Both the position numbers and the translations under genes were made by a program. This document shows positions 12,779-17,635 of a stretch of DNA of 23,622 bases, one piece after another (the first letter of the stretch is position 1; each line of letters opens with the position of its first letter). The stretch is taken from positions 1 to 23,622 of the forward strand of contig JBHIAT010000041.1 in NCBI GenBank assembly GCA_046758705.1, in the 5' to 3' direction. Source of the DNA: Candidatus Bipolaricaulia bacterium (GTDB lineage: Bacteria; Bipolaricaulota; Bipolaricaulia; JBHIAT01). The notes beneath the pieces were generated by a model. The model saw only the letters and a list, made by a program, of their open reading frames with translations. It was not told where the DNA came from and did no database searches.

Positions 12779-13696
12779 ATGGAGGAACGGACAGCATTCG
12801 TCTTCCCCGGTCAGGGTTCCCAGTCGGTTGGGATGGGACAGCGGTGGTACGAGTGCTACCCGGTAGCGGTAGCCGAGTTCTACGAGCAGGCCGAAGCTGC
12901 CCTGGGCTTCGACATCAAGAAGCTGATCTTTAACGGCCCCGAAGCGGAACTGTCATTGACGGAGAACGCCCAGCCTGCCATCCTGCTCGATAGCATTATC
13001 AAGGATCATCTCCTCAAAGCACAGGGGGTTCGCCCCGAGATTGCCCTGGGACATAGCCTGGGAGAGTATTCAGCGCTGGTGAGCGCCGGGGTGGTTTCGC
13101 TCGAGGATGGCCTGCGATTGGTACGAAAGCGCGGCCGGTTGATGCAGGAGGCCGTCCCCATCGAGCAGGGGGCGATGGTAGCGATCCTCGGGTTGGCGTT
13201 CGACCAGGTCGTGGAGATCTGCGAGGCGGTCGAGGGGATCGCTGAAGTAGCCAACTACAACTCACCGACCCAGATTGTGATCTCCGGCAACCGGGACGCG
13301 GTCTTGGAGGCGGCGAACCGCGCCCAGGAGGCGGGCGCGATCCGGACGATCGAGCTGGAGGTCTCCGCCCCGTTTCACTGTTCTCTGATGGCTCCCGCTC
13401 AGGCCGGGTTGAAACGGAAGATCGCCGCAGTAAAATTTAGACGGCCAGCGTTCCCGGTGATCATGACGGTCAGCGGGCAGCTGGAGACAGAGTCCAAGGT
13501 GATCAAGGAGTTGCTCACCCGTCAGATCACCAGCCCGGTCCGTTGGGTTGATTATATCGAACGGTTGAGGCCGGAGGGGATCGAACGAACGATCGAGGTG
13601 GGGCCGGGGCAGGTTCTGACCGGGTTGAATCGGAGGATCACCCGCGAGATGGAACATCTCCGATTCTCCGATGCGATAAAGGCAAAGGCGTCATAG
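12779..13696 (+). CDS. fabD: Malonyl-CoA:ACP transacylase
   Basis: FPGQGSQ, GHSLGEY, VSAPFHC. Likely start is ATG 12779. The last codon and the TAG stop lie inside the adjacent mobile element end. Confidence 0.95.
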   Translation: MEERTAFVFPGQGSQSVGMGQRWYECYPVAVAEFYEQAEAALGFDIKKLIFNGPEAELSLTENAQPAILLDSIIKDHLLKAQGVRPEIALGHSLGEYSALVSAGVVSLEDGLRLVRKRGRLMQEAVPIEQGAMVAILGLAFDQVVEICEAVEGIAEVANYNSPTQIVISGNRDAVLEAANRAQEAGAIRTIELEVSAPFHCSLMAPAQAGLKRKIAAVKFRRPAFPVIMTVSGQLETESKVIKELLTRQITSPVRWVDYIERLRPEGIERTIEVGPGQVLTGLNRRITREMEHLRFSDAIKAKAS

Positions 13697-13906
13697 ACCC
13701 CACGCTTAACGGCGGGGGCTTGTGAGGTGATGAAATGAACAAGCCCATCTATGACCAGGTCTAGCGCCGGAGCCGATGGCAAGGCAACGATGGCGCTCCG
13801 TTGGAGGCGGGATAGCAGATCCACCCTGGAGTGCTTCCCCAGCCCCAGGCTCTGGAAGGCTGAACTGCAGACAACCTTTGGGGTAAGGACGAAACGGGCT
13901 CAGCCC
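13690..13906 (+). ncRNA. IscB-type omegaRNA (HEARO-like) scaffold, probably 3' truncated
   Basis: Perfect pairings GTCATAGA (13690-97)/TCTATGAC (13748-55) and GGGCTTGT (13716-23)/ACAAGCCC (13739-46); AGCGCC/GGCGCT; CCTGG...CTTCCCC...CCAGG; GGCTGA...TCAGCC. The layout matches the HEARO/omegaRNA pattern as I recall it. Confidence 0.75.
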
Positions 13907-13911
13907 TATTT

Positions 13912-13990
13912 AGTCAACAGTCAATGAGTCGACAGTCCATGGTCAACGGATCCAGACTGACGACTATGGACTTATGGACTATGGACTATG
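13912..13990. repeat. Inverted array of tandem 7-bp repeats
   Basis: AGTCAAC-AGTCAAT-(G)-AGTCGAC-AGTCCAT-GGTCAAC, a central GGATCC, then GACTGAC-GACTATG-GACTTATG-GACTATG-GACTATG. AGTCCAT is the reverse complement of ATGGACT. Confidence 0.9.
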
Positions 13991-14283
13991 TGGAATCGAA
14001 CGCGGTTTGGGCTTGTGAAGACGCACGCACTGGACGCCCTGTGCGTGGGCGAGGTCACAGGGATGTCGAGTGCGAGTGCCGGGTTGCCCGTCCTGGGAAT
14101 CCGGGCGATAGGTCGGGGGCGGCGGTGTCGGACCAACACGGACGCCTTTGGGTTCCCGCGCGGGTATCGGATGCGCCGAAAGCGGGTACAGGGGATGGGT
14201 ACGAGTACGAAACCAAAGGAGGGAGCGGTGGCACCTCCCCACGTTTGAAGATGGGGGCTTCCGCCGCCGCTTGGTCCAGGTGA
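13991..14283 (+). pseudogene. iscB: iscB (RRXRR-family) 3' remnant: RuvC-III region plus extreme C-terminus
   Basis: WNRTRFGLVKTHALDALCVG (RuvC-III H..DA), then GRGRRCRTNTDAFGFPRGYRMRRKRVQG. After a frame change, DGYEY...PRLKMGAS...TGA at 14281-83, resembling IscB C-termini. Confidence 0.8.
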
Positions 14284-16815: not shown

Positions 16816-17184
16816 CTAGCAGGCGGTGCAGCGCCCGTGGAAGACGATCGTATGGCGATCGACTGAGAACCCCGTCTCCTCCCCCACCAGGTGGTTCAGC
16901 CCTTCTTGACCGGGAACCTCCAGATCGTATATGGTGCCACAGTGATCACAGACGAAGTGATAATGAGCTTCGGTCCTGTAATCGTAATGACTGGGGCCAT
17001 TGATTGACTCCAGTTCTATGATCAACCCTTCCTCAGCCAACAGGCCGAGGTTCCGATAGATGGTTCCCAGGCTGATGTTAGGGATGACTCCCTTGACCTT
17101 CTCGTAGACCCGGTCGGCGGTAGGATGGGAGGTATCCCCCTCCAAGGCTGCCAGGATCGCCTGGCGCTGTTCTGTCATTCTCAT
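16816..17184 (-). CDS. Fur-family transcriptional repressor (PerR-like)
   Basis: MTEQRQAIL, HPTAD, SLGTIYRNL, HYHFVCDHCG and C-terminal CTAC (two CxxC). Near bcp. Confidence 0.9.
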   Translation of the reverse strand: MRMTEQRQAILAALEGDTSHPTADRVYEKVKGVIPNISLGTIYRNLGLLAEEGLIIELESINGPSHYDYRTEAHYHFVCDHCGTIYDLEVPGQEGLNHLVGEETGFSVDRHTIVFHGRCTAC

Positions 17185-17554
17185 AAGTTTTGCGCGGTGG
17201 AAACCCCAGACTTCAGTCTGGGGAGGAGCTGCACTCCTTTCTTAGGATAATTCCTGGGGTGGTTTGATTGGGTCACCCCTGGAGACCACCCCGAAACTCC
17301 CTCACCCGTGTGGGTGGCTATTAAGCCCTTCGACACTGACCGCCGGAGAGGTAGCCGACTAGGGCAAGGCATCCGCTACATCCTGTGACCGCCACGTCGG
17401 ACAGTTCAGTTGCCTTCAAACGACCCCCCTATGCCGGGAATCTTGGCCAGTCTAGTCTTCCACCCTGAGTTGGGCCTGCCAGGCGAGCTACGATAGTTAG
17501 CAAGGCTACCTCACTCCTTTTACAGGCCCCGGACTTGAGTCCGGGGTAGTTGAC
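17185..17554 (-). mobile_element. ORF-less (MITE-like) IS200/IS605 OMEGA element consisting of an omegaRNA plus both ends
   Basis: On the minus strand it starts GTCAACTACCCC. Matching perfect subterminal hairpins CCCCGGACT-TG-AGTCCGGGG (17527-46) and CCCCAGACT-TC-AGTCTGGGG (17204-23) differ by a compensatory base pair. Followed directly by ATGA. Confidence 0.85.
17300..17554 (-). ncRNA. IsrB/IscB-type omegaRNA scaffold (apparently complete); 3' boundary approximate
   Basis: Minus strand reads GTCAACTACCCC...AGACTAGACTGGCCAAG...GTCGTTTGAAGGCAACTGAAC. A GTAGC/GCTAC stem has a loop GCCCT (17361-65) complementary to downstream AGGGC (17325-29), a predicted pseudoknot. ACTGA/TCAGT pairing. Confidence 0.72.
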
Positions 17555-17583
17555 GAGGGCACCTATCCCTTATCGAACATGTA

Positions 17584-17602
17584 TAAAGTAACGGTTACTT
17601 TA
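17584..17602. promoter_or_regulatory. Fur-family-type operator (9-1-9 palindrome), probable autoregulatory site
   Basis: Perfect AT-rich inverted repeat TAAAGTAAC-G-GTTACTTTA just downstream of the -10 box that faces the Fur/PerR gene. Confidence 0.7.
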
Positions 17603-17606
17603 CCTA

Positions 17607-17635
17607 AGTATAATCGATGCAGCGGGGTTGTTCAA
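17607..17635 (-). promoter_or_regulatory. Putative sigma70 promoter for the fur/perR gene and the inserted omegaRNA
   Basis: Minus strand TTGAAC (17635-30), 17-bp spacer, TATACT (17612-07). Confidence 0.65.

Follow-up and report, generated by a model that had tools for sequence, protein, structure and literature searches.

A gene-less IsrB-type element with a conserved omegaRNA scaffold on the start codon of a PerR-like gene

In the window (the whole 23,622-nt stretch of DNA analysed here) we found a 370-nt element without an ORF of any known family, which contains an IsrB-type omegaRNA scaffold and ends directly before the start codon of a Fur-family, PerR-like gene. Judged from its sequence, it is probably a non-autonomous, gene-less (PATE-like) ISC1/IsrB derivative of the IS200/IS605 group, which has kept its cis-acting parts and lies on the perR ATGA. 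It belongs to a known transposon family, in which it is unexceptional though neat. The locus offers a clean natural case of a guide-RNA gene of IsrB type persisting, and probably moving, with no nuclease gene of its own, and it supports the view that the OMEGA parts (RNA, nuclease and transposase) are exchanged in trans. The coordinates of its features are given in Table 1.

Table 1. Features of the gene-less element and of the adjoining PerR-like gene (window coordinates).
Feature	Position	Strand	Basis
Whole gene-less ISC1/IsrB-derived element	17185..17554	-	5' end by identity to contig C241, 3' end by AAAACTT/ATGA
omegaRNA scaffold, element nt 1-254	17301..17554	-	Identity to C241:4-257; aligns with 35 IsrB-linked omegaRNAs (other genomes)
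omegaRNA core (long-range helix, inner helices, nexus pseudoknot loop)	17322..17410	-	Model R1
5' subterminal hairpin = omegaRNA stem-loop 1	17527..17546	-	Perfect 9-nt arms
116-nt 3' remnant	17185..17300	-	Last 45 nt homologous to isrB gene end and TAM-side terminus
3' subterminal hairpin	17204..17223	-	Perfect 9-nt arms
ATGA = family target site/TAM and PerR-like start codon	17181..17184	-	Same AAAACTT/ATGA junction in C241
Guide-equivalent 5' flank GATAAGGGATAGGTGCCCTC with SD-like AGGTG	17555..17574	-	Sequence
63-codon ORF inside the element	17181..17372	-	TGA stop overlaps perR ATG (ATGA); no Pfam match
Fur-family PerR-like gene, 122 aa	16816..17184	-	Pfam FUR PF01475, E=4.1e-27, residues 1-115
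Perfect 9-1-9 palindrome, candidate operator	17584..17602	.	Central 15-mer has no second exact match in the genome
Promoter-like TTGAAC-17-TATACT	17607..17635	-	Sequence scan

On the minus strand, the element opened with GTCAACTACCCC at 17554 and closed with GCGCAAAACTT at 17185. The guide-equivalent flank lay immediately 5' of it and ATGAGAATGACAGAA (longer: ATGAGAATG) immediately 3', where it forms the start of the ORF at 16816-17184. The 3' boundary was placed at the AAAACTT/ATGA end, which is common to contigs C241 and C28 of the same assembly. The original prediction had described a 370-bp minus-strand, ORF-less element between an SD-like flank and ATGA, with twin perfect subterminal hairpins and no nuclease or transposase ORF, and all of this was confirmed at these positions. 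The hairpins were found at both ends of the element, with no terminal inverted repeats, and the only ORFs inside it had 63 codons (minus strand) and 41 codons (plus strand). The frame of the 3' remnant agreed with the IsrB C-terminus (...AVQNL and stop). No second perfect match to the 20-nt guide-equivalent flank was present in the genome, and an off-target search for a near match to these 20 nt followed by NTGA found none elsewhere in the genome.

The RNA-like character of the element exceeds chance: its fold had a z-score of -2.8, and 0/100 shuffles folded as well. We collected 80 loci from other genomes encoding relatives (52-66% identity) of the intact IsrB on contig C18. A motif-plus-hairpin rule placed the RNA 5' end in 54/80 loci, 47 of which passed the filters, leaving 43 unique sequences. 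After exclusion of 8 near-duplicates, 35 of these omegaRNAs were aligned with the C18, C241 and window sequences (n=38). RNAalifold predicted 31 pairs, 27 of them with compensatory changes, and the addition of a 4-pair pseudoknot brought the number to 35. Across the 35 pairs, 91.2% of cells were paired as against 70.5% in shuffled alignments (0/500 reached the observed value), and at most 49.2% of cells paired in the slid-partner control. Changes on both sides were found in 29/35 pairs. In stem-loop 1, 6/7 pairs covaried across the IsrB omegaRNA family.

The window RNA made 32/35 of the family pairs (range over the 38 sequences, 25-35). In the window copy, one conserved pair was replaced by a G-G mismatch and a second by a G-U wobble; at these two sites, the contigs of DNA runs X1-X4 had G-U for G-G and U-A for U-G, giving better pairing. 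The nexus pseudoknot, in which a loop (CCCT) pairs with AGGG in a strand downstream of the long helix, was complete in the window (4/4 pairs), while in the family 96.7% of its cells paired and 2/4 pairs changed on both sides. The name 'nexus' comes from the work on DtIsrB (PMC9581776), to whose helices the pseudoknot and helices of the window would correspond.

We then scored the locus with a core covariance model, R1, for which 36 sequences were used and both the window and C241 were left out. R1 gave the window 64.6 bits (E=1.7e-13). In a search of the genome that scored 150 of 832 first-look candidates, it matched three times, on C18, on C241 and in the window. On these sequence criteria the element's RNA is an IsrB-type omegaRNA with the conserved secondary structure of the family, and the predicted omegaRNA cassette of transposon origin is borne out by the R1 score, the 32/35 pairs and the near-identity to C241 described below. 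The proposed check with covariance models thus succeeded with the family-specific model but not with Rfam HEARO (RF02033), which gave a weak, partial match of 20.3 bits (E=0.07, gathering score 83) at 17450-17554, where the 5' 105 nt of the element match the start of the model (GUCAacuaCCCC hairpin). At gathering scores, Rfam had no match in the window. HEARO fits the IscB-type RNAs of this genome (54-118 bits) but not the IsrB-type ones, and the omegaRNA adjoining the intact C18 IsrB reached no more than 16.7 bits. HEARO is therefore weak for IsrB-type RNAs, and its failure here is no refutation. Other low-scoring Rfam matches were rejected: HgcC at 17124-17241 on the plus strand (23.6 bits, gathering score 50) drew on the hairpin and GGAGGAG and was put down to chance, and tRNA-Sec and ZNFX1-AS1 had E>7. 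Two loose genome motif scans for omegaRNA 5' ends were too noisy and were left out of the counts.

The genome (G000; 3.7 Mb, 319 contigs, 93.9% complete) is rich in IscB/IsrB elements, with 8 HEARO matches (54-118 bits) and 7 RRXRR-domain ORFs. Element nt 1-254 were 253/254 identical to C241:4-257, and an IsrB ORF of 293 codons lay directly downstream on C241 (locus L028, 281-1162; Pfam RRXRR, E=2.4e-36), the closest solved relative of its product being the DtIsrB nickase (8DMB, E=1.4e-35). The last 45 nt of the window element were 84% identical to C241:1114-1158, and both finish AAAACTT/ATGA. On C241, a hairpin and AAAACTT close the element; ATGA then opens a pyruvate dehydrogenase E1-alpha-like ORF (MNQQGLL...), and the TGA stop of the C241 IsrB overlaps the ATG of this downstream gene. 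Contig C44 finishes ...AACAGCAG and then runs 52 nt into this RNA gene from its start, and C241 opens with CAG and the RNA gene; since C44 and C241 share CAG and the RNA gene, they are neighbours. As read from these contigs, the assembly has two copies of the subfamily, a full one (C44/C241) and a gene-less one (window). The window copy retains the RNA gene to nt 254 and the last 116 nt but is missing isrB; only in the C241 copy does the RNA lie directly upstream of isrB. Their 3' parts are 16% divergent, and the gene-less copy thus did not arise from that on C241 by deletion alone.

A complete element was found on C18 (locus L025, 1253-2564), consisting of an omegaRNA, a 338-aa IsrB and an end hairpin. 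It lies directly 5' of an ATGA that opens a Crp/Fnr-like ORF (MSLPKCEKCK...). In the window and on C241, C18 and C28 alike, ATGA stands immediately 3' of the TAM-side end. The C28 copy is a contig-end fragment finishing ...AAAACCTT before its ATGA. Contigs break inside IsrB-type RNA 5' ends or TAM-side ends at C101:16-54, C123:11410-11448, C151:8609-8647 and the end of C28, and the assembly therefore undercounts these elements. On C67 (~10488, minus strand), the same 5' terminus and hairpin (GTCAACTACCCCGGAC...GTCCGGGGCTTG) were seen on a different element without an IsrB-type RNA core. This may be a TnpB-type element with shared termini, by analogy with the ISC/IS605B pairs reported in PMC4810608.

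The C241 IsrB has suffered an in-frame loss of ~44 aa including the FDAHCIDS stretch, which aligns with the H..D motif of DtIsrB and which we read from the alignment as the RuvC-III motif. Among the best 120 of 3514 homologues, the C241 protein was the sole 293-aa form; the other 119 (318-435 aa) were all longer, and the deletion is therefore private to this protein. The only intact IsrB in the assembly is that of C18, which has 53% identity to the C241 protein; its alignment to 8DMB spans residues 3-295, and the motif is present. Six matches to Y1 transposase (PF01797) were present in the genome, and none of the six was linked to these hairpins or ends as the cognate enzyme.

Among sequencing runs, the locus was present in four DNA runs (X1-X4) of one study and in no listed RNA run. 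In X4 one 750-nt contig carried the sequence of 17181-17554 with 8 substitutions and with both flanks unlike those of the window. Judged from this single contig, which has a depth of ~7, the whole gene-less element probably occurs in a second genomic context and hence probably moves as a unit. On the X4 contig, the frame after ATGA was open for all 11 visible codons, and the peptide motif of the X4 flank was not found in G000 in six frames, so that no empty site of the X4 copy came to light. The locus DNA had no match in related genomes (0/40 of the same class), and exact-pattern scans of metagenome contigs gave 0 matches for the 20-nt flank and 0 for a 23-nt internal junction. The search for empty-site alleles, suggested with the original prediction, came back negative in both the 40 same-class genomes and the metagenome-contig scans. 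No joint across the element was seen in contigs of the four runs; in X4 the locus was only partly covered, and such contigs drop rare variants, which makes them uninformative on excision.

The run contigs confirmed the junction between the element's tail and perR, in unique sequence, and showed the 254-nt part as a two-copy repeat with C44 and C241 continuations. Either end of this repeat is a break point in the public k=31 contigs, from which the copies cannot be phased, and the join of the 5' flank to the window element rests on assembly contigs C41 and C241.

The gene downstream of the element had been predicted to encode a Fur/PerR repressor, and a FUR domain spans its product (Table 1). 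The best NCBIfam models for the 122-aa protein were PerR models, though all scores were below their cut-offs (95 bits for a cut-off of 200). A thiol peroxidase gene and an RnfC-like gene precede it on the same strand, and a relative of its product was found in 66/121 genomes of the class, G000 included. When 11 of these loci were examined, 3 aligned from residue 1 (62%, 59% and 56% identity); the N-termini of the other 8 differed and their starts could not be placed. One orthologue opens with the same ATGAGAATGAC, and one keeps an unoccupied ATGA at its start. A Bcp-like gene adjoined the PerR-like gene in 2/11 loci, and relatives of the C44 genes did so in 0/11.

Upstream, the predicted TTGAAC-17-TATACT and 9-1-9 palindrome were both present, in a region with 3 promoter-like sites against 0.5 expected from shuffles. 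In three orthologue loci (L121, L122 and L129, ~1460-1500), TTGACA or TTGAAA was followed after a 17-nt spacer by a TATACT ending 6-9 nt before the ATG, which suggests that these three orthologues have leaderless transcripts and that the long leader at the window perR is therefore new. The window shares the TATACT with these orthologues, but here 52 nt of leader sequence precede the element. The insertion separates the SD-like flank from the repressor start codon by 370 nt, as had been predicted, and with the element present no SD-like motif was found within 20 nt of the perR ATG. It would thereby put a structured leader of ~415 nt before a repressor gene whose closest three orthologues are apparently leaderless. 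The 63-codon ORF stays open in the X4 variant, with 4 residue changes from 5 substitutions, and the overlap of its stop with the perR ATG is an arrangement that would allow translational coupling.

We surveyed the target site in the 80 relatives, taking as the element boundary the point where similarity between loci stops and requiring at least 2 supporting alignments (58 loci in, 22 dropped). The boundary tetranucleotide was ATGA in 49 of the 58, GTGA in 6, CTGA in 2 and TTGA in 1, so that 55/58 had [AG]TGA. The frame at the boundary NTG was open for at least 100 codons in 40/57 evaluable loci and not open in 17, compared with 1/57 for the control frame +2 at the same boundaries and 115/674 (17%) for other [AG]TGA sites in the upstream flanks; some of the surveyed loci are orthologous insertions in related genomes, and these counts are partly non-independent. 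Many of the boundary ORFs start, by eye, with signal-peptide-like stretches. An SD core (GGAG, GAGG or AGGA) was found within 14 nt before the RNA 5' end in 18/47 loci, against 0/47 and 3/47 for two windows further upstream and 7.4% for random 14-mers. It follows from this survey that lying between an SD and an ATG is the usual arrangement of the family. The start-codon placement singled out by the original prediction is therefore real but less special than claimed.

An element ORF ending on the TGA of the TAM was seen in 2/58 relatives. The idea that an SD-like motif from the element's own end keeps the host gene translated was rejected, such a motif being present in 9/58 relatives and absent from the window. 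In loci L085 and L086 (~2520-2550, one Poribacteria insertion), the frame begun by the boundary ATGA closes after 4 codons; AAAGGAG follows, and then a second ATG that opens a long ORF, placing the element upstream of the RBS and not on the start. The wording 'start codon' had 0 occurrences in PMC4810608 and in a 2026 review (PMC13565253), and a start-codon insertion pattern for IsrB/IscB was absent from the literature titles and abstract openings searched. A start-codon target and an SD-enriched flank matter both for the annotation of adjoining genes and for guide-RNA expression.

Several of these features have been described for known systems. The published ISC1 target is N/ATGA (PMC4810608), and the window element is inserted at such a site without target duplication. 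ISC1-1_MA of Microcystis aeruginosa (Kapitonov, Makarova, Koonin 2016, PMC4810608) has the same 5'-GTCA terminus and subterminal hairpins and is likewise inserted directly 5' of ATGA with no target duplication; ISC1 transposons differ from the window copy in that the latter has no isrB gene. The predicted order of flank, scaffold and ATGA agrees with the geometry reported for IsrB, with an NTGA TAM and the guide 5' of the scaffold (PMC9581776; 10.1101/2023.03.14.532601). The DtIsrB-omegaRNA complex (Hirano et al. 2022, PMC9581776, PDB 8DMB) likewise has a large structured RNA with a 5' guide, a nexus pseudoknot and an NTGA TAM, whereas the window scaffold has 254 nt and is without the last stem-loop of its sister copy. 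Removal of SL8 was reported to be tolerated in the DtIsrB omegaRNA (PMC9581776).

Nuclease-less omegaRNA genes have been published before, as stand-alone omegaRNAs (Altae-Tran 2021, as cited in PMC9581776) and as omegaRNA-carrying PATE-like elements, for which a need for outside transcription is described (Meers et al., 10.1101/2023.03.14.532601; PMC9581776). Like the window element, these have no adjacent nuclease gene; they depend, as the window element would, on proteins in trans and on transcription from outside. The cases described in these sources are of IscB and TnpB, whereas the window element is of IsrB type, and it also differs from them in lying on the start codon of a Fur-family repressor, below a promoter-like site and a candidate operator palindrome.

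We propose that the element has retained what it would need in cis, namely both subterminal hairpins, which a Y1 transposase would recognise, and the omegaRNA scaffold, while isrB has been lost. It would thus occupy the position 5' of the family target ATGA, which here is the PerR-like start codon, in the same orientation as the gene. Since the element brings no promoter for the scaffold, and its guide lies outside, transcription would come only from the perR promoter. It would be expected to yield a leader of ~45 nt ending in the guide-equivalent 20 nt, followed by the scaffold and then perR, from which a guide RNA might be processed. If IsrB were supplied in trans, this RNA could direct nicking of the empty site (flank and ATGA) after excision, and such nicking would favour retention of the element. 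With the SD-like sequence 370 nt from the ATG, PerR translation would have to rely on something else, and a possible substitute is translational coupling to the 63-codon ORF ending in ATGA.

The element could instead be an inert relic, that is, a decaying and immobile remnant whose RNA has no partner and whose insertion is merely tolerated. We consider this possible, if rather unlikely. The two pair-weakening letters of the window copy would fit such decay, as would the failure to find an empty site or a cognate transposase and the state of the IsrB that adjoins the near-identical omegaRNA, which lacks RuvC-III and is the sole 293-aa form among the best 120 of 3514 homologues. A relic would hardly be expected, however, to have kept both hairpins perfect and 32/35 family pairs, or to recur in the same gene-less form in another context in run X4, and the genome does hold an intact 338-aa IsrB and six Y1 transposase matches. 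That the RNA guides this same truncated protein to bind DNA and so to repress, on the model of the nuclease-dead TnpB relatives (TldR), appears very improbable: its 293-aa frame is open and adjoins the near-identical omegaRNA, but no homologue of that length occurs among the best 120 of 3514, and elsewhere in the genome nothing close to the guide sequence precedes an NTGA.

A different concern is assembly. If the two copies of the 254-nt repeat had been mis-phased, the perR promoter flank would truly join the full IsrB element and the 5' flank of the gene-less element would come from C44. The break of the k=31 contigs at both repeat ends leaves room for this, and the C44 flank has TGTATAAT 12 nt from the junction, much like the promoters of the near-leaderless perR orthologues. 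We nevertheless hold such an exchange to be unlikely. C41 runs through the repeat, and C241 opens with CAG, in which the C44 flank ends but the window flank does not, and shares a 55-nt overlap with the C44 end, so that the assembly phases both copies consistently. The TATACT common to the window and three orthologue promoters points the same way, as does the gene neighbourhood (Bcp-like gene beside perR in 2/11 relatives, C44-gene relatives in 0/11), and the tail-perR junction lies in unique sequence either way. Less likely again is that the element has become a domesticated leader, a structured RNA that sets PerR translation, for example via the 63-codon ORF, with its transposon functions irrelevant. 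In favour of this, the SD-like flank has been moved 370 nt away, the 63-codon ORF overlaps the perR start with its stop (ATGA) and is open in the X4 variant, perR is intact (62% identical to an orthologue), and the -10 box 6-9 nt from the ATG in 3 orthologues marks the long leader as new. Yet the same element is found at an unrelated site, 4/5 substitutions in the 63-codon ORF alter a residue, an element ORF ends on the TGA of the TAM in only 2/58 relatives, and nothing ties the RNA to PerR function.

The reading as a mobile, gene-less IsrB derivative may be extended to the whole family, although we do so tentatively and regard the extension as doubtful. The IsrB target/TAM [AG]TGA equals a start codon plus A, and each insertion would therefore capture a host promoter, with the 5' UTR/RBS as guide. 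IsrB elements, including guide-only forms, might then be specialised start-codon occupants. The gene-less form, borrowing both IsrB and the transposase, would in that case be a parasite of a parasite. Guide-RNA output and PerR translation would both be tied to a promoter that PerR itself may control, and retention of the element would be linked to the peroxide response.

A second nuclease-less cassette was observed in the window at 13690-14283 (plus strand), with an IscB-type HEARO RNA of 64.4 bits (below the gathering score of 83). Its RNA starts inside the last codons of fabD and is followed by a decayed IscB C-terminal fragment, an 86-codon ORF with ...THALDALCVG..., and then by fabG; the end of this cassette does not lie on the fabG start codon.
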